From assembly GCA_963711565.1 (NCBI GenBank), contig CAVQEQ010000003.1:896001-960000 (forward strand): a stretch of 64,000 nucleotides of DNA. Reading direction: 5' to 3'. Of this stretch, positions 11,122-26,664 are shown one piece after another. Made by a program: the position numbers and the translations under genes. The DNA is from an uncultured delta proteobacterium. Its GTDB lineage: Bacteria > Desulfobacterota > Binatia > Binatales > Binataceae. Every line of letters starts with the position of its first letter. Within the stretch, counting starts at the first letter, position 1. The notes under the pieces were generated by a model that worked only from the letters and a program-made list of their open reading frames with translations, was not told where the DNA came from and did no database searches.

Positions 11122-11916
<795 letters not shown>

Positions 11917-12024
11917 CGTGTTTTTCCAGCCGCGGAAATCCTATCTGCACCCCGCCGCATATTCCATCGCGCACTGGTTTGCCCTTTTTGCGATTACAAA
12001 CCTAAGATGGCCGAGGGGACCGAC

Positions 12025-12843
12025 ATGGCGGTAATTGCAATCAGTCAACAAATTGGCAGCAGAGGCATCGAGCTCGGCGAGCTCGCGGCGCAGCAACTCG
12101 GTTACCGGTTCCAGACCGGCGAGCAATTGATCGCCGAAACCGCCAGGCGCTTCAACGTCAGCGCCGATCAGATGAAATGGTTCGACGTACACAACCCGCA
12201 TTTCTGGGAACGGAAGACCGACGGCAGCCGCTTCGCCGCGTACTATCGTGCCGTCTTCCTGCAGGAGGCCGCGCAGGACCGGATCGTCGTCGCGGGCCGC
12301 GGTTCGTCGCATTTTCTCCCTGACGGCGGATGCGGCATCAGGGTGCGCACGATGGCTCCAGTGGCCGATCGCATCAAGCAGGTGGCGAAAGACGAGAAGC
12401 TCGCGCCGGCGGCGGCGGAGAAACGCGTTCGCGATTTCGACACCGAACTGAAGGCTCGCATTCACAGTCTGTTCGGGCAGGATATTGAGGACCCGGCGAT
12501 TTACGACCTGGTAATTAACACGGCGCGACTTTCGCTGGCGTCGCACGCGAACACGCTCGCAGCCCTCGCGACTCATATCGACAGTGAAGGCAACCCCGAA
12601 CGCACGAAGCGCATGAACGACGCTGCGATCGCGGCGCAGGTGCATGCGGCGCTGGTGGCGCACCCGAAAATCGGCGACTCGCAAATGTCAGTCAATTGCT
12701 CGGCCGGATGCGTGCGCGTAAGCGGTCCGGGACTGGTGCCGCCGTGGGACGAGCTCGTGATCGAAGTCGCGCAAACGATCGAAGGCGTCGCCTCGGTCGA
12801 AGTCGGCGCCGAAGAAGATCCCGTAACATTGACTACCAGTTGA
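12025..12843 (+). CDS. Cytidylate kinase-like family protein with C-terminal BON-like domain
   Basis: VIAISQQIGSRG.E, VVAGRG, DPAIYDLVINT, then IAAQVHAAL...V.VSG...AQTIEGVASV; RBS GAGGGG. Confidence 0.8.
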   Translation: MAVIAISQQIGSRGIELGELAAQQLGYRFQTGEQLIAETARRFNVSADQMKWFDVHNPHFWERKTDGSRFAAYYRAVFLQEAAQDRIVVAGRGSSHFLPDGGCGIRVRTMAPVADRIKQVAKDEKLAPAAAEKRVRDFDTELKARIHSLFGQDIEDPAIYDLVINTARLSLASHANTLAALATHIDSEGNPERTKRMNDAAIAAQVHAALVAHPKIGDSQMSVNCSAGCVRVSGPGLVPPWDELVIEVAQTIEGVASVEVGAEEDPVTLTTS

Positions 12844-12854
12844 CCGCCCCCGGA

Positions 12855-13316
12855 ATGCGCGCACTCATCATCTTTTTCGCCACTGGAATTTATTCCGGAT
12901 ACGCTCCGATTGCGCCGGGAACCGCCGGCTCGGTGGTTGGACTGGTGGTCGTGTGGCTCGTATTCGGTCCGCTCTGGATTCATTCGCCGGCGCTATGCCT
13001 GCTGGTATTCGCGATCGCGTTTGCGATTGCATGCTGGATTTCCGATCGCGCCGAGAAAATTTTCGACAATCACGACGATTCGCGCATCGTGATCGACGAA
13101 GTCTTCGGTATGGCCGCGACGATGTTCGGCAATCCGATCACGTTCGGCTGGCTGATGCTCGGATTTCTGCTGTTTCGAGTCGCCGACGTGGTCAAGCCGT
13201 GGCCGGCGAGCTGGTTCGATCGCCGCATGCGCAACGGCGCGGGCGTGATGCTGGATGATTTGGCTGCGGGGATTTATGCGAATATTGTGCTGCAGGTGAT
13301 CGTGCGCTTGCTCTGA
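12855..13316 (+). CDS. pgpA: Phosphatidylglycerophosphatase A
   Basis: PIAPGTAGS, HDDSRIVIDEVFG, FRVADVVKPWP, GVMLDDLAAG. Confidence 0.95.
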   Translation: MRALIIFFATGIYSGYAPIAPGTAGSVVGLVVVWLVFGPLWIHSPALCLLVFAIAFAIACWISDRAEKIFDNHDDSRIVIDEVFGMAATMFGNPITFGWLMLGFLLFRVADVVKPWPASWFDRRMRNGAGVMLDDLAAGIYANIVLQVIVRLL

Positions 13317-13342
13317 AGGTACACGCCCGCAAGGAGTTCCCG

Positions 13343-14626
13343 ATGATTCAGAACGCTGTGATTCTTTCCACCGGCGACGAAATCACCACCGGCAAGGTCG
13401 TCGATACCAACGCCAACTATCTTGCCGACAAGCTCGCGGAAATCGGAATCGATCTCGTTGCGGTGCTCACCGTCGGCGACGTTCCCGACCGCCTGGAGTG
13501 GGCGTGGCGCACCGCCATCGCGAGAGGTGACGTGGTGATTTCGACCGGCGGCATCGGGCCTACCGCCGACGACCTGACCACCGAAACTATCGCGCGCGTC
13601 GCACGCGTGAAGCTGCGGCGCGATGAAGCCGCCGTCGAGCACATGACGCGATTGTTCGCGAGCATTGGCCGCCCGATGCCCGAGAACAATCTCAAGCAGG
13701 CGGACTTCCCCGAGGGCGCAACCATCATTCAGAATCCTCTCGGCACCGCGCCCGGCTTCAGAATGCCGGTGACGCTCGGCGGCCATACCGCGCATCTGAT
13801 CGTGCTGCCCGGCGTGCCGCGCGAGATGAAACCGATGATGGAAAATACGGTGATCCCGTGGATCGCGGCGAATCGCGGCACCGACAAGGTTTACGCGGTG
13901 AAGATTTTCCAGACCTTCGGTATGAGCGAGTCGGCGCTCGACGAAGCGGTGGCGGGATTGATCAAACCCGAAGAAGCCAAGGTCTCGTTCCGCGCGAGTT
14001 TCCCGCAGATTTCGCTCAAGATCAGAGTAGAGGGAGCACCCGGCGAGGTCGATCGCAAGCTGGCGGAGCTGTCGCATCGCGTGCGCGAGAAAATCTCGCA
14101 GTTCGTTTACGCCGAAGGCGACACCTCGATGGAAGAAGTCGTCGGCCGCCTCTTCATCGAGAAGAAATTTACGCTGGCGGTCGCCGAGTCATGCACCGGC
14201 GGACTGATCGGACATCGCATCACCAACGTTCCCGGCTGCTCGCAATACTTCAAAGGCGACCTCGTGACCTACACCTACGACGTGAAGGAAGGAGTGCTTG
14301 GGGTTTCGGCGGAGACGCTGAAAGCGCATGGCGCAGTGAGCGAAGAATGCGTACGCGAGATGGCGGCGGGCGTTCGCCGCCGCATCGGCGCGAGCGTGTC
14401 GGTCGCGACTTCGGGAATCGCGGGACCCGACGGCGGCACGCCGGACAAACCGGTCGGCACGGTCTGCATCGCGCTGTCAGCCGACGATCAGAGCTTCACC
14501 CGCCGCTACCAGTTTCGCGGCACTCGCGACTGGATCAAGCTGATCACGTCGCAGGTCGCGCTCGACTGGTTGCGGCGATACGCGCTCGGTCTGCCGATCG
14601 CCGACTCGACGCTGTTCCGCCGCTAG
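13343..14626 (+). CDS. cinA: Competence/damage-inducible protein CinA (MoCF-like + PncC domains)
   Basis: GDEITTGKVVDTN, TGGIGPTADDLT, LPGVPREM, AESCTGG, SGIAGPDGG..DKPVGTV. Confidence 0.95.
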   Translation: MIQNAVILSTGDEITTGKVVDTNANYLADKLAEIGIDLVAVLTVGDVPDRLEWAWRTAIARGDVVISTGGIGPTADDLTTETIARVARVKLRRDEAAVEHMTRLFASIGRPMPENNLKQADFPEGATIIQNPLGTAPGFRMPVTLGGHTAHLIVLPGVPREMKPMMENTVIPWIAANRGTDKVYAVKIFQTFGMSESALDEAVAGLIKPEEAKVSFRASFPQISLKIRVEGAPGEVDRKLAELSHRVREKISQFVYAEGDTSMEEVVGRLFIEKKFTLAVAESCTGGLIGHRITNVPGCSQYFKGDLVTYTYDVKEGVLGVSAETLKAHGAVSEECVREMAAGVRRRIGASVSVATSGIAGPDGGTPDKPVGTVCIALSADDQSFTRRYQFRGTRDWIKLITSQVALDWLRRYALGLPIADSTLFRR

Positions 14627-14629
14627 CAC

Positions 14630-15007
14630 TCATCTGACGCGCGCGTAGTTGATCAGATCGCTGCCGGTGCCGGCCAGCGCAAGCTTCCCGTTGGCCGCGG
14701 CGCACTGGACCGCGTTCGCCGAAGTCGCGTCGGTGCACAGCACAACATTCGTGTCGCCAGTGAAGCACGCATCGTTGACTGTCGCGTTACCTTGAGCGAG
14801 TTGCACGTGTCCGGCGCAAAGATTGGCCATCTGCTTCACATCCACGGAACCAAAGACGCTGTTTGCCCACACGCCGGTCACATCATTTGACGCGGCGCGC
14901 GCTTTGCCGTCCGCCGGTGGAGGCCCGGGATGCGGCCCACGACCGCATCCAGAGCCAAGCAGGGCGAACAATGACAGTGCAGCAAGAATTGTCGTTCCTG
15001 TCTTCAT
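14630..15007 (-). CDS. Putative lipoprotein, four further Cys in mature part
   Basis: MKTGTTILAALSLFALLGSG-C lipobox-like signal followed by a Pro-rich linker. Confidence 0.65.
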   Translation of the reverse strand: MKTGTTILAALSLFALLGSGCGRGPHPGPPPADGKARAASNDVTGVWANSVFGSVDVKQMANLCAGHVQLAQGNATVNDACFTGDTNVVLCTDATSANAVQCAAANGKLALAGTGSDLINYARVR

Positions 15008-15016
15008 GTTTCCCAA

Positions 15017-15397
15017 TCAAACAAATTCAGCACTCGCCCGTTTTACGCTGACGCCTCCGAACATCGAGTACGCAAGAATGTCCAGTGGTAGACGAGCGTC
15101 CTCCTCGTCGCTTATCGAAGCGCTCGACTCCGAACTGTTCGCGGCTGTTTGCCGGCCGCGCAAATCGATCTTGCGCCCGCCGAATATGCTGAAGCCGTCG
15201 CAGATCACTTTTTCGTCGGGGCGCACTCTCACTTTGGCACCGCCGAATATCGCGACGACGGTAACAGCAAGCTCGGGCGGCGCATTCGTGAGGTCCAAAT
15301 CAAGTCCGCCGAAAAGAGCAAGGCCGAAAAACGACTCGCCACGATGGAGCATGCTGCCGTCGATCCTGTTCCCGGAAAAAATGGCCAAGCTCACCAT
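15017..15397 (-). CDS. Soluble LiaF C-terminal-like / Toastrack-type beta-repeat protein
   Basis: Five repeats AIFSGNRID, ALFGGLDLD, AIFGGAKVR, SIFGGRKID, SMFGGVSVK; no TM helix. Confidence 0.7.
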   Translation of the reverse strand: MVSLAIFSGNRIDGSMLHRGESFFGLALFGGLDLDLTNAPPELAVTVVAIFGGAKVRVRPDEKVICDGFSIFGGRKIDLRGRQTAANSSESSASISDEEDARLPLDILAYSMFGGVSVKRASAEFV

Positions 15398-15404
15398 GAT
15401 CGCA

Positions 15405-16145
15405 TCAGTTCGCGTGCTTGATGTCGCCGTTGACTGCCGCGTTGGCCGCTGCCGTGAAGATATCCATCGGCGCCAGCGGTGGCCGGCGCTTGCGCTTCAG
15501 GTCGGCGAGCTCGGCCTGGGCCTTGGCTTCGGTGTTGCGCTGGCGGATAGCTTCGAGCTTGTCACCGAGTTCGGAGCCGGCGATTTCGTGATTGACGCCC
15601 GCCTGCGCGAGCATCCGCTGAATCGACTCGCGCACTTCTTCGAGCGCGCGAACGTCGTCGTCGGACGAAATCTCTTCGAGCGCGCGCTGGATTCGCACGC
15701 GCGCCTGCGCATTTCTCATCCGCGCGATCATGCGGACCTTCTCGACCTTGAGCTTTTCGATCTCGCCCTTGAACGAGATCAAATTCTTCTTCGCGTCCTC
15801 GGCTTCCGTCGTCAGCTCGCCGAGCTCTTCGCGCAGCCGGGTGCAATCGCCGTCGAGGATGTGCTTGCGCTGGATCAGGATCAGCGCGCACTGGTCCTCG
15901 TTCATATCGGCGGCCTGCCCCGCTTCTTCATCGACTTCCTTCATCTCGGCGAGTTTCTCGCGCAGCTCGCGCTCGAGCTTGTTGCGCATGTAGATAACGC
16001 CGGCCGCCGCGGTCTTGAGCTGATGATAGCGCTGCACGCGATCCGAGATCGCGGACTCGTACACCGCCTCGGGGTCGCGCGCCTCGCGCGCTTTAATCCA
16101 GCGGCTGAACTTGCCTCCGAGCAATTTGAAAAATCTTGATAACAT
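15405..16145 (-). CDS. pspA: PspA/IM30 family protein
   Basis: Amphipathic N-helix MLSRFFKLLGGKFSRWI, DPEAVYESAI, long coiled coils, C-terminal AELADLK; RBS AGGAG. Confidence 0.85.
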   Translation of the reverse strand: MLSRFFKLLGGKFSRWIKAREARDPEAVYESAISDRVQRYHQLKTAAAGVIYMRNKLERELREKLAEMKEVDEEAGQAADMNEDQCALILIQRKHILDGDCTRLREELGELTTEAEDAKKNLISFKGEIEKLKVEKVRMIARMRNAQARVRIQRALEEISSDDDVRALEEVRESIQRMLAQAGVNHEIAGSELGDKLEAIRQRNTEAKAQAELADLKRKRRPPLAPMDIFTAAANAAVNGDIKHAN

Positions 16146-16197
16146 TTTCGTTCTCCTTTTGGCCGCGAGCGCAGCCGCGTTCTTCTTTTCTAGATTT

Positions 16198-16680
16198 TCA
16201 GATCCAACGCCTGACGCGGTACGCGTAATCGCGGTAGTCCTGGCCGAAGAGCCGCTCCATCGTCTCTTCCTCGCGCGGGATCACGAGCCGATCGATCACT
16301 GCGAAGAAGACGGCCGGCGCCAACAGCATCGCGATCGACCCGAAGAAAATCGCCAGTCCTAACAACGTCGTCGCGAGGCCGAGATACATCGGGTTTCGCG
16401 TCCAGGTATATGGCGGCTGCGCGACGAACGCGGTCGGCTCGCCCCAGGGCTTCCTGGTGGTGTCTCGCGCCTGGAAAATCGCGGCGGCGAAACATGACAC
16501 GCCGACGCCGCCCGCAACCACCAGCAATCCAATCACCTGGTACCATCCCACCGAGCGCTCCTCGGGCAGCATGAAATGGAGCACGAGCGTGACCAGCAAC
16601 AGCACGCCCGCCAACAGGGGCGGATGAATCTTCATCGTCGTTACGGTGGTGCTGGAGGATTGAGATTCGGCGGTGTTCAT
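16198..16680 (-). CDS. Isoprenylcysteine carboxylmethyltransferase / PEMT-family membrane protein
   Basis: PPYTWTRNPMYLG, IPREEETMERLFGQDYRDY..RVRRWI. Confidence 0.9.
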   Translation of the reverse strand: MNTAESQSSSTTVTTMKIHPPLLAGVLLLVTLVLHFMLPEERSVGWYQVIGLLVVAGGVGVSCFAAAIFQARDTTRKPWGEPTAFVAQPPYTWTRNPMYLGLATTLLGLAIFFGSIAMLLAPAVFFAVIDRLVIPREEETMERLFGQDYRDYAYRVRRWI

Positions 16681-16708
16681 TTTCTATCTTCTCCGCGTTT
16701 GCGCGAAA

Positions 16709-18169
16709 TCAATTGGTGTCACTCTTGGTGGCCTGCGCGAGCCCGATATTTTCGATCGTAATCCCGAGTTCGCGCATTTTCTGTTGAAAGCTTTGGCGGT
16801 ACATCCCGGTCCGTTCCGCGGCGCGCGAGATATTGCCGCCGGTGGCCCGCAAAGCACGCACGAAGAAATCTCGTTCCCAATCGCCGACGAATTTTTCTTT
16901 CGCCTCGCGAAACGTCATTGCCGATTCGCCGTTCTCGGTCGCCGCCGATCCGTGATTCGACGTGCTCGTTGCTGGCGAGCTGGCGTGGTCGCCCTCCGGC
17001 TCCGAGCCGGCGAACAGATCTTCCGCGGTAATCTCGGCTCCCGCCGACAGGATCACCGCCTGCTCGATTGCCGCCTTGAGCGAACGCGCGTTGCCCTTCC
17101 ACGGAGCCTCGACGCACGCGCGCATCGCCTCGGGCGTGAGCTGTTTTTGCGGCGCGGAAAAACGATTGCACGCCTCCGCAATGAAGTGCTGGACCATCAG
17201 GGGCACATCTTCACGCCGCTCGCGCACGGGAGGCACGCGAATCTCGACGACCTTCAGGCGGTAGTAGAGATCCTCGCGAAACTTGCCCTGCTCGATCATC
17301 GCTTCGAGGTCCTGGTTGGTGGCCGCGATTATTCGCACATCAACGCTCAGCGGCTGATTCCCGCCGATCCGCTCGAACACCTGCTCCTGCAGCACGCGCA
17401 GCAACTTGGCCTGCGTCTCGAGCGCCATGTCGCCGATTTCGTCCAGGAACAACGTGCCGCCGTTAGCGGCTTCGAATTTTCCTTCGCGACGCGCGACGGC
17501 GCCGGTGAACGCCCCCTTCTCGTGGCCGAACAGCTCGCTCTCGACCAGCTCGCGCGAGAACGCCGCGCAATTGACCGCGATAAACGGCTTGCGCGCCCGC
17601 GGACTGCGAAAATGTATCGCGCGCGCCACGAGCTCCTTGCCGGTGCCCGATTCGCCGCGGATCAGAACCGTGACGTCGGTCGGCGCGACCTTGTCGATCG
17701 TCTCGAACACCCGCATCATCGCGCGCGAGCGCCCGACCATATTCTCGAAAACGCCCGTCTCGAGCCGCACCTGCTCGAGCAGCTGGCTGTGCTCGCGCTT
17801 GAGCAGTTGCGTCTCCATCACCTTGCGCACTTTCAGGCGCAGCTCGTCGTTGTCGAACGGCTTGGGCAGGTAATCCTCGGCGCCCGCCTTCATCGCTTCG
17901 ACTGCGATTCGCTGAGTGCCGAACGCGGTGATCATCAACACCGCGCACGCGGGATCGAGTTCGCGCACGTGCTTGAGCAATTCGAGCCCGCTCATTCCCT
18001 TCATGCTGAGATCGGTGATGATGACGTGGAACAGTCCCGCCTTGACCTTCTCGAGCGCTTCTTCGCCCGACTCCGCGGTCTCGACTTCGTAGCCCTCCTT
18101 GGTGAAGAGTCCCTTGAGCGCGATGACGATTCCGCGCTCGTCGTCAACTACCAGCAATCGGCCTTTCAA
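16709..18169 (-). CDS. Sigma54-dependent response regulator (NtrC family: REC + AAA+ + HTH)
   Basis: [50 protein letters not shown]; TTG start overlaps the kinase stop (TTGA). Confidence 0.95.
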
Positions 18170-19755
18170 TTTCGTAGCCTCGAGGTCTGAGTGGATGGCG
18201 CGCCCGCCGCCATTGGGACGATCGGCGTAGTTGTCGCACCGCCGCCGTTGTTTTGTGCGTTGTTCTGCTGGATAGGTTCAGCCGCTTCTCCCACGATGTC
18301 CGGCGACTCGGGCCGCTCACTCGTCGCGCACGGCGCCATCGTGGTCGGAACCGCCGACGACTGGACTACGTCGTCGTTATCGCGCACGGCGTCGCTGAGC
18401 GGAATCGCGAGCACGAACTCAGTGCCCTGCCCGACGATGCTGTGCACTTCGATCGTCCCGCGATGCGAGTCGATCACTTTTTTCGCTACGCCCAGGCCGA
18501 GCCCGGTGCCGTTGGTCTTCGACGTGTAGAACGGATTGAAAATTTTCGCGATCTTGTCGTCGGGGATTCCGCAGCCGTTGTCGCGAATCCTGACCGCCGC
18601 CATGCCCGCACCGTTGTTTTGTATCGCAAATTCGAGCCGGCGCTCCCCGGTCGTCGATTCCATCGCGTCGATCGCGTTGTCGATGATGTTCGAGAAAACC
18701 TGCCGCAGCTTGTCGGCGTCTGCGCGCACGGTCGGACCGCTCAGGTACGCGCGCGAGACCATCACCGAGTTTGCCTCGAGCTTGCTGCGCATCTGCGTGA
18801 GCGCGCCGTCGACCACCCACGCCAGATTTACATTTTCGAACTTGTAGTCTTCTTCCTTTGCGTATTTGAGCAGATGCGACACGCTGCGCTCGACGCGTGC
18901 AAGCTCATCGAGCGCGACCTTCGCGTACTCGACGTTCTCATGCGAGGTCGGATCCTCGCCCATTTGCTGCACCAGGCTCTTCGCCGCCGCGATCGGATTG
19001 CGGATTTCGTGCGCGAAGGTCGCCGTCAGCTCGTCCAGCGACGCCTGCTTCTCGGTCCGCAGCTGCTCTTTCTCCTGCAAAACTTCGCGCTGAACTTCGC
19101 GCGCGACCGCCGGCTGGAAAACCCGGTCATGTACCCATCGCCAGCCGTACACCGCCGAGAAATGGCTGACGATTCCAAATCCCCACCCGAGCGCCGGCCA
19201 GATGAACCACGGATATCCGCCGAACCCGGTCGTCATCAGGTTGATGATGAACAGGAAGCCGATGATGATTCCGTACCACATCAGGTGCACGAAGAAGCCG
19301 GCCTCGGCCTGCGCGCGTTTGCGTGCGCGGTCGTAGGTCTGGCGCTCGGCGTCGTTCTTGAACTGCGGTGGCGGCGGCATATCCTGCGCGGGATCGGCGC
19401 TGACGCCTCCATACTTATGCGTCTGCTTGTCGAAGCGCTCCTTCAGCTTGCGCTCGAATTTTTCGGCCTTGGCCTCGAACTTGCGCGCCATCTTGGAATC
19501 GAAGTCGCGCTTTATCTTGGCGTGCAGATCGTTGGCGAAGCGCTCCGCCGACGCCGTCGTGGACGCCTTGGCTTGCTCGGCCCACTTCGACCAGTCGCGC
19601 GACCCCCTCGAGCCGCGCCGCCCGTACTGCGACCAGTCGTGCTTCGACCAATCGTATTTCGACCAGTCGCTGTACTTCATCCAGCGCAGACGGTTTCGCT
19701 TTCGATGTTGCACGACCGCGTAAATGATTAGTGCTACTATGAAGATGCCGAACAT
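18166..19755 (-). CDS. Sensor histidine kinase with 2TM domain and N-terminal DWS(K/Q) repeats
   Basis: AHEIRNP H-box, [33 protein letters not shown]; 2TM-like segment GFFVHLMWY...INLMT...[18 protein letters not shown]. Confidence 0.93.
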
Positions 19756-19856
19756 CCTGTCTCACCTGGGCCCGGAAATGCCGGTCCGTCTAATTGACCT
19801 ATCGAGTCGCCGCAGCTAAAACAATCGCCATTTATTTCCGGGTCCTGACCTCTAAC

Positions 19857-19872
19857 AGCAAAGGAGATGCCG
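19857..19872 (-). promoter_or_regulatory. Sigma54 -24/-12 promoter of the kinase-pspA operon
   Basis: Minus strand CGGCATCTCCTTTGCT matches TGGCACG-N4-TTGCW with exact GG-N10-GC spacing, about 100 bp upstream of the ATG. Confidence 0.7.
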
Positions 19873-19944
19873 ACGCCCGCGGGCGCGAAAAGTCGAGCAT
19901 TCGCGCGGATTCCATCGATCATGCGGGCGCACGCGACGCCCCAG

Positions 19945-19976
19945 TGCAGTCGCGCCATTGCAGCCCCCGCACTGCA
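19945..19976. promoter_or_regulatory. Candidate enhancer (UAS): three TGCA at 14-bp spacing
   Basis: TGCA at 19945, 19959, 19973; TGCAG-N8-CTGCA dyad at 19959-19976; about 75-105 bp upstream of the -24 element. Confidence 0.5.
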
Positions 19977-20036: not shown

Positions 20037-20846
20037 ATGACGCAGTACTGGCCATTCTCGGGACTGATGCGACAGAACGCGCTGCGCGAGCGGCTGATCG
20101 TCTCGCTCGATCTGCGCGACCGCGGCGAAGCGCTCAAGCTGGTGGACCGGCTGGCGCGGGTGGTCGGGATGTTCAAAGTCGGGCGCGCGCTGTTCGTCGG
20201 CGGCGGCCCGGATTTCATTCGCGAGATTCGCCGACGCGGCGCCGAAGTCTTTCTAGACCTCAAATTCCACGACAGCCCGCAGAAGGTGCTGCGCGCCGCC
20301 GTCGAGGCGACGCGGCTTGGCGTCAAGATGTTCGACCTTCACCCCTACGGCTCCAACTGCGGCTCGACCGAGATGATGACGCGGACGCGCACCGAGGTCG
20401 CACGCATCTGCCGGACCGAGGGTCTTCGGCGCCCCAGTATCCTGGCGATCGCGACGCTCGCCGAAATGAAGTCCGCGAATTCAAGCCCACGAACGCCGGT
20501 CTCGCCCGACCGGGTCACCGAGATCGCGCGCTTCGCCGCCGACGCGTCGCTCGACGGCGTCGTCACGTGGCCGCATGAAGTCCCGCGCGTTCGCAACAGT
20601 TGCGGACGCCGATTCATTATCGTGACGTCGGGCGTACGGCTGCGCGAGGTCGCGAGCCCAGCCTCGAATGCGATCACCGCCGCCGACGCGATCCGCGCGG
20701 GCGCCGACTACGTCGTCGTCGGCAGTCCGATCTGGAGTGCGACCGAGCCGATTCGCGCCGTGCGCGAGATTACCGACGACATCGAGCGCGGACTGCGCAA
20801 CAACCCGCGGCGCACGTTTGAAATTCTCAACCCCCGTCCCGTATAG
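20037..20846 (+). CDS. Divergent orotidine-5'-phosphate decarboxylase (PyrF) homolog
   Basis: LIVSLD, FKVG, FLDLKFHD, AIRAGADYVVVG; several substrate-binding motifs altered (see findings); alternative start 20067. Confidence 0.8.
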   Translation: MTQYWPFSGLMRQNALRERLIVSLDLRDRGEALKLVDRLARVVGMFKVGRALFVGGGPDFIREIRRRGAEVFLDLKFHDSPQKVLRAAVEATRLGVKMFDLHPYGSNCGSTEMMTRTRTEVARICRTEGLRRPSILAIATLAEMKSANSSPRTPVSPDRVTEIARFAADASLDGVVTWPHEVPRVRNSCGRRFIIVTSGVRLREVASPASNAITAADAIRAGADYVVVGSPIWSATEPIRAVREITDDIERGLRNNPRRTFEILNPRPV

Positions 20847-22980: not shown

Positions 22981-23292
22981 TCAGGCAGCAGAGGACGTTC
23001 GGTGAACCGGAATTCGTTCGAGTTCGGTGCGCAGTTCGCGCTCGGCGCGCCAGAGGTCGCAGGCTTGCTGCATCCGCAGCCAGATTCCGGGTCCGTTGCC
23101 GCAGAACCGGCCGAGCCGCGCGGCCATCCCCGGCGTAATCGATACCTTCTCGGCCATAATCCGATGTAGCGTCTGCCGCGTTACGCCAAGCTGTCGCGCC
23201 GCCTCGCTGACTGAGAGACCGAGCGCGGGAAGGACATCCTCGCGCAGGATGGCGCCGGGATGGGTCGGCCTTCGCTTCGCACTATCTTTCAT
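22981..23292 (-). CDS. higA: HigA-family antitoxin
   Basis: PTHPGAILREDVLPALGLSVSEAARQLGVTRQTL...WLRMQ; start uncertain (23292 or 23310). Confidence 0.9.
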   Translation of the reverse strand: MKDSAKRRPTHPGAILREDVLPALGLSVSEAARQLGVTRQTLHRIMAEKVSITPGMAARLGRFCGNGPGIWLRMQQACDLWRAERELRTELERIPVHRTSSAA

Positions 23293-23360
23293 TGCTGGCT
23301 TGATTATCATGATTGGCTTCCCGAAATCCGGAGCATCGATTATATGGCTACGCTTGAAGC

Positions 23361-23636
23361 TCAATGGTATTGCTCAAGGTCAACCTGCCACGCGTCACCC
23401 TCGTGCCACTCGAAAGTAATGCACCAAGGACCGTTTACGTGAACGCTGTAGCGCTGCGGCTTGCCGCTGAGAGGGTGGAAGTCGAAGCCGGGAATGTTGA
23501 GATCCCGCAGCGTTGCGGCCCGTTCCAGCGCATCCAGTCTTCGAATCGTCCTATTTTGGAGATCCGCCGCCACTTTTCGGCTTCGACCTTGGCGAAACAG
23601 CTCGCCAAGCCCCTTGTGGCGGAAGCCCCGTATCAC
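23361..23636 (-). CDS. higB: HigB-family (RelE/ParE superfamily) toxin
   Basis: IRGFRHKGL.ELF, FHPLSG, YSVHVNGPWCITFEW, VDLEQYH; toxin-first order. Confidence 0.92.
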   Translation of the reverse strand: MIRGFRHKGLGELFRQGRSRKVAADLQNRTIRRLDALERAATLRDLNIPGFDFHPLSGKPQRYSVHVNGPWCITFEWHEGDAWQVDLEQYH

Positions 23637-23645
23637 CCGGAAAAC

Positions 23646-23670
23646 GTAACACACCCGGTTACAGGTGTAA
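23646..23670. promoter_or_regulatory. Probable higBA operator palindromes
   Basis: GTAAC-N7-GTTAC (23646-23662) overlapping TTACA-GG-TGTAA (23659-23670), just upstream of higB. Confidence 0.6.
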
Positions 23671-23714: not shown

Positions 23715-24851
23715 TCACCGCGCGCCGGCGGCTGCCGACTCTGCCTGAAACTCCCGCGAACTCCTGCTCAGCTTTGGCATTACGTGCTTGCCGATTAGGT
23801 CGACCGTCTGCATTACCTTTTCGTGGGGGACTGCGCCTACCTGCACCAGCATCAGGAGTAGATCTACTCCGGCGGATTCGTAGAACTTTGCGACCTTGAG
23901 GCAGTCTTCCGGGTCGCCGACCATCACGGCGCCTGCTTCGATTCGTTTGTCGAGATCGGCGAGCGACATCCGGTAGTCGCCGATTGCGACCGCCGCTTCC
24001 GCCAGTTTCTTGTAGTATTCGTAGCCCTTTACTTCCTGTTTGGCGAAGGGCGTGAACAGCTCGGCGGCTTTGCGCGTGGTGAAATCGATCGCGTCCTTCG
24101 CGATCACCTTCGCTTCTTCACGCGTCGGCGCGCATACACAGACCGTCGCCGCCGCGACGCGATCGTTCACGAACGCGCCGACCGGCTCGCACGTTTTGAT
24201 CGCCTTCTTGTAAACCGCGATCAGGTTGTCGAGCAGCCCCGGCTCTGAAATTCCGAAGCCGAGCGCGCCGATTCCCTTCTGCCCCGCGATTTCCCACGTT
24301 GACGGCTGCGTCGCCGCCACCCACATGGGAGGATGCGGTTTCTGGATCGGCTTCGGTATCACCTCGCGCTCCGGCATCTTGAAAAATTTGCCGTCGTGGC
24401 TGAACGTCTCGTTCATCCACATTTTCGGGATCGCGGCGACCGCCTCTTCCCACATCGCGCGCGAATCTTCCGGATTCACCTGGAAGCCGCCGAGCTCCTG
24501 CTCGGTGATCGAGCGGCCCGAGCCGAACTCGACGCGCCCGTTCGACATGATGTCGAGCACCGCGATTCGCTCCGCCACGCGCACGGGATGGTTGAATGGA
24601 ATAGGCAGCAGGCAGATGCCGTGGCCGAGCCGAATCCGCAACGTCACCTGGCTGAGCGCGCCATACCACACTTCGGGCGCCGACGAGTACGACCATTCGC
24701 TGAGAAAATGATGCTCGACAGTCCAGACCGAATGGTAGCCGAGGCGGTCCGCGAGTTTCACCTGCTCGGTGGCCTGCTGGTAGATGTCGTACATGAAGCC
24801 GGGGTAATGGGGGCGGCTCCGCTGAAGCTCATACTGCAGCGCAAATTCCAT
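23715..24851 (-). CDS. LLM-class (luciferase-like) flavin-dependent oxidoreductase
   Basis: ADRLGYHSVWTVEHHF, HPVRVAERIAVLDIMSNGRVEFGSGR, PKPIQKPHPP. Confidence 0.93.
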   Translation of the reverse strand: MEFALQYELQRSRPHYPGFMYDIYQQATEQVKLADRLGYHSVWTVEHHFLSEWSYSSAPEVWYGALSQVTLRIRLGHGICLLPIPFNHPVRVAERIAVLDIMSNGRVEFGSGRSITEQELGGFQVNPEDSRAMWEEAVAAIPKMWMNETFSHDGKFFKMPEREVIPKPIQKPHPPMWVAATQPSTWEIAGQKGIGALGFGISEPGLLDNLIAVYKKAIKTCEPVGAFVNDRVAAATVCVCAPTREEAKVIAKDAIDFTTRKAAELFTPFAKQEVKGYEYYKKLAEAAVAIGDYRMSLADLDKRIEAGAVMVGDPEDCLKVAKFYESAGVDLLLMLVQVGAVPHEKVMQTVDLIGKHVMPKLSRSSREFQAESAAAGAR

Positions 24852-24874
24852 CGACTCGTTCCTCCGTCAGTATT

Positions 24875-26023
24875 TCAGGGGTGAGCCGCATCCGGGCGCG
24901 CGGCGGGTTGTGCGGCCGTAATTCCTCCCGGCGTTTTCCACGAATGAATCTCGGCGAGCGCGTGACGGCCGATGAGGTCGATCGACTTCATGATCTTGTC
25001 GTGCGGGATGCCGCCGTACTGCAGAAAAAACAGGACCTGGTCGGCGCCGAGATCGCGGTAGCGGCTCGCGACGCGCACCGCTTCGTCCGGCGTGCCGACG
25101 GCGATCAGGTCGCCGTCCTTGAGGAAGTCGTAGTAGTCGGTCGTGAACTTGGCGGGATCGAACTTCGACGCGGTCTTCAAATATTTGTAGGACTCGTCGG
25201 TCTGGCTCGCCGCCGCGACGCTCGACACCAGCTCGAAACCCTTGCGCACGTACCACAACACTGCTTCGCGCGCGAGATGCTCGGCCTCGTAGGGGTCGTC
25301 GCTGACGAGACCCATGATGTTCATCGAGACCTGGTTGTTAATCGTCTGCCCGACCGGCCGCGCGTTCCTGATTCCTTCGCGATAGATATTGATTCGCTCC
25401 GCCACCTGCGCCAACTCGACGCCGAGCGTGAAGCAAAGCACGCCCAACCCGCGCTCCGCGGCCAGCCCGAAGGTGGTGGGATTGGTCGCGGCGACCCACA
25501 TGGGAGGATGCGGTTTCTGAATCGGCTTGGGGATCACCGAGACGGGCGGATCGACGGTCCAGTACTTGCCATGCATCGTGAACGGATCTTCGCGCCACAT
25601 CCGCGGGATCGCCTCGACCGCCTCGGCCCATCGCGGGCGCGTCTCTTCGGGACGCACGCCGAAGCCGAGCAGCTCGTCCATCGTGGTCGCGCGCCCGGTG
25701 CCGAATTCGACGCGTCCGTTGGACATGATATCGAGCATCGCGATCCGTTCCGCCACGTGGATCGGATGATTGAACGGCAGCACGACGACGCCGTGACCGA
25801 CACGAATCTGCTTCGTGCGCTGGGTGACGCAGGCAAGGAAAACCTCGGGCGCCGAGCAGTAGGAAAATTCGTTCAGGAAGTGATGCTCGACGGTCCACAC
25901 CGAATCGAAGCCGAGGCGGTCGGCCAGTTCGATCTGCGCCATCGTTTCCCAGAACACGCGATATTCGTGATCGGCGGCGTGCGGCTTGATCGACTCGATT
26001 TCGTAGATGAGGCCCGCCTTCAT
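24875..26023 (-). CDS. LLM-class (luciferase-like) flavin-dependent oxidoreductase
   Basis: ADRLGFDSVWTVEHHF, HPIHVAERIAMLDIMSNGRVEFGTGR, PKPIQKPHPP; ATGA overlap with the TetR gene. Confidence 0.93.
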   Translation of the reverse strand: MKAGLIYEIESIKPHAADHEYRVFWETMAQIELADRLGFDSVWTVEHHFLNEFSYCSAPEVFLACVTQRTKQIRVGHGVVVLPFNHPIHVAERIAMLDIMSNGRVEFGTGRATTMDELLGFGVRPEETRPRWAEAVEAIPRMWREDPFTMHGKYWTVDPPVSVIPKPIQKPHPPMWVAATNPTTFGLAAERGLGVLCFTLGVELAQVAERINIYREGIRNARPVGQTINNQVSMNIMGLVSDDPYEAEHLAREAVLWYVRKGFELVSSVAAASQTDESYKYLKTASKFDPAKFTTDYYDFLKDGDLIAVGTPDEAVRVASRYRDLGADQVLFFLQYGGIPHDKIMKSIDLIGRHALAEIHSWKTPGGITAAQPAARPDAAHP

Positions 26024-26664
26024 TTGGCGATGCTCCATTGGCGCATGAACTCGCGGGCCTGGCGGCGCAGCGAGCGGCGCAAATCGAAGCGCGGTCCGTG
26101 CAGATACCAGAGCATCGCGAGTCCCAGGTAGCTCGAAAAAATCTGCGTTGCCGCCCAGGCTGGATCGAGATCCGCGTCAAAAATTCCGAGCCGCTGCCCG
26201 CGCTCTACCTGTTCACGGAAACTCGCGATGCCGCTGAGATTCGCCTTGCGCATCGAGCGCAGCACCCGCGGCCCAATCTTGTGCGATTCGAGCGCGATGA
26301 TCAGCAGTAGCCGGCTGACCCACGGATTCTTCTCATTGAGCGCCGCCATCGTGTCGAACATCCGCTCGAACTCCGCGCGGAACTCGACGGTATTGGTCGC
26401 GCGTGCCGATTTCTCGAAGATCAGTTCCCATTCGCCGAGCACCTTGGCGACGACCGCGATGAAAAATTCTTCCTTGTCGGCGAAATGCCAATAGAGCGCG
26501 CCCTTGGTGACGCCCGCCGCGCGCGCGATTCGCGCCAGCGAGGTGCCTCGGTATCCGTACGACGCGAACAGATCCATCGCGGCGTCGATCAACACCTGGT
26601 CGAGCGAACCGCGCCGGCGCGTCGGTTGCGTCGGCGCCGCATTTTTGCGTGCTGGTGATATCAT
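26020..26664 (-). CDS. TetR/AcrR family regulator
   Basis: AAMDLFASYGYRGTSLARIARAAGVTKGALYWHFADKEE. Confidence 0.95.
   Translation of the reverse strand: MISPARKNAAPTQPTRRRGSLDQVLIDAAMDLFASYGYRGTSLARIARAAGVTKGALYWHFADKEEFFIAVVAKVLGEWELIFEKSARATNTVEFRAEFERMFDTMAALNEKNPWVSRLLLIIALESHKIGPRVLRSMRKANLSGIASFREQVERGQRLGIFDADLDPAWAATQIFSSYLGLAMLWYLHGPRFDLRRSLRRQAREFMRQWSIAK

Follow-up and report, generated by a model that had tools for sequence, protein, structure and literature searches.

PspA serves in envelope-stress systems that differ in their regulators. In the enterobacterial phage-shock (Psp) system (pspF beside pspABCDE), PspA stands behind a sigma-54 promoter served by an AAA+ enhancer-binding activator, PspF, which has no N-terminal regulatory domain and binds PspA via Y51, L52 and W56, the YLW patch (PMC3791423). 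In the Firmicute Lia system (liaIHGFSR) and the actinobacterial PspA-PspAA-HISKIN-REC systems, PspA goes with a membrane kinase and a response regulator, and sometimes with a Toastrack-type domain. LiaR is of the receiver (REC)-winged helix-turn-helix (wHTH) type, and the PspA-linked kinases covered in the same source pair with REC+wHTH regulators (PMC11237479). The HISKIN rows of its supplement are REC+wHTH systems in 12 of 12 cases, with no AAA+ regulator among them, and pspA with kinases in Actinobacteria is also noted elsewhere (PMC9239133). Besides PspF-type control, there are sigma-54 envelope-stress pairs without PspA, such as ZraSR (PMC3041696, PMC4641369, PMC4987338). The subject here is a locus of yet another layout: a six-gene run in a 64,000-nucleotide stretch of DNA (the window; contig CAVQEQ010000003.1, positions 896,001 to 960,000) from an uncultured member of the Binataceae, class Binatia, in which a histidine kinase and a sigma-54 activator precede PspA.

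How does this locus compare? Its wiring works like Psp and Lia, and by its regulators it is a member of neither; it is a sigma-54 two-component PspA system. As in Psp, PspA stands behind a sigma-54 promoter and an AAA+ enhancer-binding activator. However, the Binatia activator is encoded within the operon, carries a receiver and lacks the YLW patch, and a kinase takes the place of PspB and PspC. As in Lia and the actinobacterial systems, PspA is accompanied by a membrane kinase and a response regulator. In contrast to those systems, the regulator is of the sigma-54/NtrC type (REC-AAA+-Fis helix-turn-helix (HTH), not REC-wHTH), the sensor is of the 2TM type and there is neither a LiaI nor a LiaF membrane domain. 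The first-pass annotation had proposed that the design departs from both Psp and Lia, and the REC-bearing sigma-54 activator, the missing PspBC and the absence of a fixed LiaF bear this out.

Two further comparisons are instructive. ZraSR-ZraP and the Desulfovibrio pairs DVU3381-82 and DVU1418-19 are autoregulated sigma-54 pairs with an envelope-stress output (PMC4987338, PMC4641369). The REC-AAA+-HTH architecture and conserved promoter of the Binatia system suggest the same type of pair, and one Binatia relative has a Spy/CpxP-family gene behind the regulatory motif described below. Nevertheless, the Binatia kinase has no periplasmic sensor domain, there is no ZraP at the locus and PspA is the main target. 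PspA-flotillin (band 7) operons likewise use PspA as an effector without PspBC. However, they have an HTH regulator and flotillin, and no kinase. A literature search turned up no account of the kinase-activator-PspA layout, with the PMC11237479 web application, the PMC9239133 external data and most subscription journals lying outside that search. Apparently the wiring and the regulon are new; every part comes from a known family.

A conserved kinase-activator-PspA core

All six open reading frames (ORFs) are co-oriented on the minus strand at 14630..19976 of the window (ORF and Pfam analysis), with intergenic gaps of -4, 28, 52, 7 and 9 bp, the last counted with the lipoprotein ATG at 15007 (Table 1). 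The tight packing, the gene order, the -24/-12 promoter and the upstream dyads initially reported were all recovered. Among the initial domain calls, those of kinase and regulator were recovered by Pfam, those of PEMT and PspA exceed their Pfam cut-offs and that of the LiaF-like protein falls below threshold.

The assignment of PspA was upheld both by hidden Markov model (PF04012, 71 bits against a cut-off of 33.9, residues 2-219) and by structure, since Vipp1/PspA structures match the protein along its length (E 1.4e-16). Its N-terminal helix is amphipathic: in all 10 aligned rows the hydrophobic moment ranks within the top 8% of windows. PspA would be a membrane-binding, ESCRT-III-like polymer acting as effector. 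No PspB or PspC was detected at the locus and none in the host genome, which is 94.9% complete and in which positive controls matched. The same genome encodes RpoN (434 bits).

Conservation was assessed in a class sample of 201 Binatia genomes. The kinase is present in 66 of them, spread over 10 of 20 families, and this PspA type in 63. For 56 of the 66 kinase hits PspA lies less than 4 kb downstream on the same strand. The ten unlinked genomes comprise three with PspA on another contig, two in which the contig ends and five without PspA in the fetched DNA. In the 43 linked genomes from families other than Binataceae, kinase and PspA are 1408-1808 bp apart, a distance that leaves room for the activator alone. 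Within Binataceae, counts come from the 80 best of 290 genome-scan loci and are biased to close kin. Kinase and regulator occur together in 67 of the 67 loci with enough upstream DNA, and the full six-gene order in 12 of 80. The conserved unit is three genes, kinase-activator-PspA, not six; the core of the cluster originally proposed is conserved and its six-gene layout is not. The nearest PspA loci (93-98% identity) belong to Candidatus Binatus/Binataceae. A phylum-wide search with a single PspA query matched 4 of 201 genomes; all four belong to the class, and this query gave nothing elsewhere. No relative was found among the viral contigs searched.

Sensor, activator and promoter

The Pfam domains of the kinase are 2TM (PF13239), HisKA and HATPase_c. 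The 2TM hairpin exposes about five extracytoplasmic residues between its helices, and the second helix continues into the HisKA helix, in which H249 is invariant in the alignment. Ahead of the hairpin lie a third hydrophobic segment, at the N-terminus, with basic residues after it, and then a charged linker of 56-133 residues. The segment and its basic residues stand out clearly in 9 of 11 rows; of the other two, one is truncated at its start and one is weaker. Because of the positive-inside rule, these basic residues place the linker in the cytoplasm. Thus, the original description as an intramembrane-type kinase holds for the hairpin, and it had missed the extra segment and the linker. A kinase without an outside domain likely receives its signal from within or beside the membrane. 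Its predicted structure (predicted local distance difference test 64.7) matches generic kinase cores alone, and in NCBIfam ZraS is the second-best match (157 against a cut-off of 479).

A second, shorter 2TM kinase stands behind the palindrome and sigma-54 motif in G296 (L171:1654-2709) and is resembled by the distant 2TM kinases P0234, P0237, P0248 and P0249. P0248 is labelled Myxococcota, and a metagenome scan with it gave one locus at 33% identity. A gene for a one-helix protein of 52-73 amino acids lies between promoter and kinase in L051 (7752-7973), L053 (893-1114), L052, L062 and L066 (940-1098); three of the genomes with this arrangement have no downstream PspA. In L175 and L216 (G412 and G351) the motif precedes apparently broken or cut kinase genes.

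The regulator consists of REC (108 bits), Sigma54_activat and HTH_8 (Fis-type) domains, with GAFTGA present and D53 at the acceptor position of the receiver. It scores 397-456 bits with NtrC/AtoC/ZraR models against 280 with the PspF model TIGR02974 (cut-off 443.55), which has 16 matches in the genome, all under the cut-off. The regulator could be read at 43 of 45 loci, and all 43 lack L52 and W56 of the PspF patch; PspF-type docking between PspA and activator was rejected as unlikely on this ground. Therefore, with a receiver domain and no docking patch, the activator is likely controlled by phosphorylation, with PspA as effector. This agrees with the earlier proposal of phosphorylation-controlled sigma-54 activation coupled to PspA without pspBC.

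Upstream of the kinase there is one consensus sigma-54 -24/-12 site, GG-N10-GC. Of 25 loci in the genus, 24 include upstream DNA, and all 24 have the site; in other genera and families, 23 of 25 kinase loci match it at no fewer than 10 of 11 consensus positions. In total, 105 of 131 loci have both a kinase hit and a site of this quality; the others are cut, kinase-less or weaker, and some genomes are counted twice. An 18-bp palindrome, YGCAG-N8-YTGCR, lies within 170 bp in 100 of these 105 loci, compared with 0.125% of random windows. Because these loci had served to define the motif, it was then tested on whole genomes, where kin are not independent and the figures are counts only. The palindrome plus sigma-54 pattern was found in 60 of 201 genomes, of which 55 are kinase-positive and 2 have it before a kinase gene that is partial or broken. 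Controls with the pattern reversed matched in 4 and 2 genomes. In the host genome the palindrome accompanies 3 of 155 sigma-54-like sites, and this operon has the top score. The palindrome is the predicted binding site of this activator. Sigma-70 and terminator scans stayed at chance level, and RNA runs shared at most 10% of words, with relatives' contigs alone. The 100-nt leader (window 19756-19856) has an ATG about 20 nt in that is kept genus-wide and is possibly a small-gene remnant; a leader peptide is not claimed, since the short-ORF frames are unconserved.

With moderate confidence, the operon is read here as a response to membrane stress that amplifies itself. A disturbance within the bilayer would be registered by the membrane-embedded kinase, which would pass a phosphate from H249 to D53 in the receiver of the activator. 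The activator would then occupy the conserved 18-bp palindromes and start transcription from the sigma-54 promoter, and the pair would switch on its own operon, whose genes are presumably co-transcribed. PspA would act as effector, not as anti-activator. The wider output would include one-helix membrane proteins, a Spy/CpxP-like protein with a PEMT paralogue, an ABC ATPase and a P450-P450-MFS run, a set that fits damage by lipophilic compounds. The methyltransferase, lipoprotein and LiaF-like genes would be lineage-specific passengers on the same promoter. A conserved and likely autoregulated operon is what stands of the 'autoregulated membrane-stress module' first suggested; that membrane stress is the signal is what we infer.

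What if PspA, or a small membrane protein, instead restrains the kinase via the cytoplasmic linker until damaged membrane titrates it away? This would be a partner switch like that of PspA and PspF, moved onto the kinase. Outside Binataceae, PspA does stand directly after the activator in all 43 genomes with linkage, the host genome yielded no PspB or PspC, and a charged, helical cytoplasmic linker without a known sensor domain is a conserved part of the kinase. In addition, 3 of 4 loci of the PspA-less family have, before the kinase, a gene for a 72-73-amino-acid one-helix protein. However, the linker is poorly conserved in both length and sequence, the pair persists without PspA and the PspF-type patch is missing. 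A complex prediction for kinase residues 60-305 with PspA scored 0.03 against a mark of 0.32 and is informative neither way. On balance such feedback is improbable.

Predicted targets beyond the operon

The membrane-stress reading would extend to other genes that carry the motif. In the host genome the three palindrome-bearing sigma-54 sites precede this operon, a P450-P450-MFS run (C2) and a 57-amino-acid one-helix protein (C3). Elsewhere the motif precedes small hydrophobic proteins of 32-88 amino acids in at least three families. In G244 (L211:304-1298) it stands before a Spy/CpxP-family gene (LTXXQ, 55 bits) followed by a PEMT paralogue. Other predicted targets are an ABC ATPase (L168), a P450 (L213), two soluble methyltransferases (L183, L217), the second 2TM kinase of G296, one further kinase and a handful of unrelated genes. 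The regulon of the activator probably includes small membrane proteins and detoxifying enzymes. Small membrane protein families of this size range lie directly behind palindrome and sigma-54 site in L174, L182, L190 and L212, in L194, L195, L209 and L210, and in L220.

Two of the predicted target groups could be followed across genomes. The C2 cluster (G000:C2:194142-199926; L283:4142-9926, minus strand) reads TetR - P450 - P450 - P450 - MFS and has its sigma-54 site and palindrome between the first and second P450. Upstream DNA is available for 27 of 30 P450 loci; 13 have the sigma-54 site, and in 10 of these 13 the palindrome is above threshold. The P450 promoter site occurs in 13 of 18 kinase-positive genomes against 0 of 9 kinase-negative ones, although best hits may be paralogues. 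The second group is a one-helix family of about 57 amino acids, without a Pfam match and often in tandem (G000:C3:1544504-1544677, C3:1050017-1050392). Among Binataceae genomes it occurs in 26 of the 34 with the kinase and in 2 of the 27 without it; a sigma-54 site stands at 24 of its 29 loci.

These targets raise another question. Might the pair sense a specific lipophilic compound or lipid (an antibiotic, a terpenoid or a sterol-like molecule) and govern a modification-and-export regulon in which PspA is the repair arm of detoxification? A two-component pair that senses a membrane-active compound is on record (PMC7472640). The motif precedes the P450-P450-MFS run in the host genome and, above threshold, in nine relatives, as well as the different P450, the methyltransferases, the ABC ATPase and two PEMT-like genes. 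The nearest solved structures of the P450 are enzymes acting on vitamin D, macrolides and steroids, and the pair survives without PspA. However, PspA is the sole target common across families. The P450 site is confined to Binataceae plus one unrelated case and is missing in 5 of 18 kinase-positive genomes, two of them of the same genus, and single-genome targets may be chance. This explanation is therefore regarded as rather unlikely.

Several observations nevertheless count against the membrane-stress reading itself. Kinase, activator, promoter and palindrome are all present in G355, G371 and G359, which are 95-100% complete and returned no PF04012 match; two more genomes (G339, G398) have PspA elsewhere only. 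Since the pair is kept without PspA, it is not tied to PspA and has a job beyond it. The host genome has a second PspA, with flotillin, which could do the repair job. The pattern occurs in 3 genomes without the kinase and its exact form is missing from 11 kinase-positive ones, and it was drawn from the same loci, kin included. The host genome has at least 16 enhancer-binding proteins, another of which could bind the palindrome. In the 57-amino-acid family the palindrome is above threshold in 8 of 29 loci, so another activator may serve these small-protein promoters. Finally, the P450s, MFS and methyltransferases are as suggestive of chemistry as of repair. The second PspA lies at G000:C4:208064-211859 (L049:8053-11859, minus strand) in the order HTH - membrane protein - small protein - flotillin - PspA, an arrangement of a known kind.

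Do such losses make PspA an old passenger on a pair that runs an unrelated programme, for example in lipid or developmental metabolism? The loss of PspA from five genomes with the promoter intact, and the second PspA of the host, would suit this. Against it, PspA is intact and in order in 56 of 66 genomes, its identity across families is about 42-46% and most other motif targets are envelope proteins. It is the least credible of the explanations considered here, and a very improbable one.

Accessory genes, surroundings and significance

The remaining three genes are Binataceae add-ons. Among the Binataceae loci that extend far enough (67 for PEMT, 77 for the lipoprotein and LiaF-like genes), the PEMT-like gene is found in 55, the lipoprotein gene in 52 and the LiaF-like gene in 13, and tblastn (E 1e-3) detected none of them in 15 loci from other families. 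Consequently, methyltransferase and lipoprotein, first taken as part of the design, belong to the family level, and the Lia half of the suggested 'Psp/Lia hybrid' lacks support. The PEMT-like protein matches PF04191 (42 bits, cut-off 25). The LiaF-like protein lacks a transmembrane helix and reaches 14.9 bits against a cut-off of 29 (E 0.025) with LiaF-like_C. Its homologues match PF09922 at E<=0.1 in 4 of 25 cases (best 0.0025, below cut-off), and Atlas feature matches of 0.98-0.93 lead to clusters with 13-57% PF09922, with a recognition score just under the mark. The protein therefore leans to LiaF-like_C. As a fixed inhibitor of the kinase it was rejected, being too sporadic. The C-terminal domain of the lipoprotein resembles phage tailspike C-terminal domains (Z 8.7, root-mean-square deviation 1.9, 62 residues), with a Z near the usual best for such searches. 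A weak PF24146 match appears in 7 of 28 homologues, Foldseek returned nothing below E 0.001 and the Atlas matches are unnamed; perhaps, as a lead only, the modelled domain is a sugar-binding fold. The lipoprotein gene is tandemly duplicated in several Binataceae loci (L055, L057, L116, L126, L149).

Table 1. Features of the Binatia operon and its upstream region (window coordinates).
Feature	Position	Strand	Basis or remark
Distal 18-bp palindrome, YGCAGY-N6-RCTGCR	19959..19976	-	Predicted activator site; top-scoring copy in genome; class-wide conserved
Second palindrome, overlapping the distal one	19945..19962	-	Motif scan
Sigma-54 -24/-12 site	19857..19872	-	Consensus GG-N10-GC; 24/24 genus loci
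Intramembrane-type histidine kinase, 529 aa, core gene	18166..19755	-	Pfam, alignment, model
NtrC-family regulator, 486 aa, core gene	16709..18169	-	REC + AAA+ + Fis-type HTH
PEMT/ICMT-family membrane methyltransferase-like protein, 160 aa, Binataceae accessory	16198..16680	-	Pfam
PspA/IM30 (ESCRT-III-like), 246 aa, core gene	15405..16145	-	Pfam, structure match
Stand-alone LiaF-like_C (Toastrack-type) protein, 126 aa, sporadic accessory	15017..15397	-	Sub-cut-off Pfam
Predicted lipoprotein, 125 aa, Cys21, Binataceae accessory	14630..15007	-	C-terminal four-cysteine beta domain

The operon is flanked by divergent pyrF (20037-20846) and convergent cinA (13343-14626). The stops of cinA and the lipoprotein gene are 3 bp apart (window 14626-14630), with no terminator-like site there on the operon strand. 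Plus-strand genes at 11797-14626 are a cytidylate-kinase-like/BON gene, pgpA and cinA. Further away, two short overlapping minus-strand ORFs at 22981-23654 are presumably a HigBA-like toxin-antitoxin pair, and two tandem ORFs at 23715-26038 are what we take to be luciferase-like monooxygenases.

What does the system mean? The signal read by the Psp response is still debated, and one kinase in place of PspB, PspC and the PspA-PspF switch is a simpler circuit in which to test that question. A more far-reaching picture can be put forward tentatively, as possible at best. This would be a third, class-wide phage-shock design, in which a three-helix 2TM kinase, an undescribed kind of sensor, reads the state of the bilayer directly, is tuned by PspA or one-helix proteins, and drives via sigma-54 a regulon of ESCRT-III-like repair, modification by P450s and methyltransferases, and export of lipophilic toxins. 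If true, it would give the 2TM domain (PF13239) its first function. The system would tie 2TM, a domain of unknown function, to membrane sensing, and it provides the first predicted stress regulon for the abundant, uncultured class Binatia.

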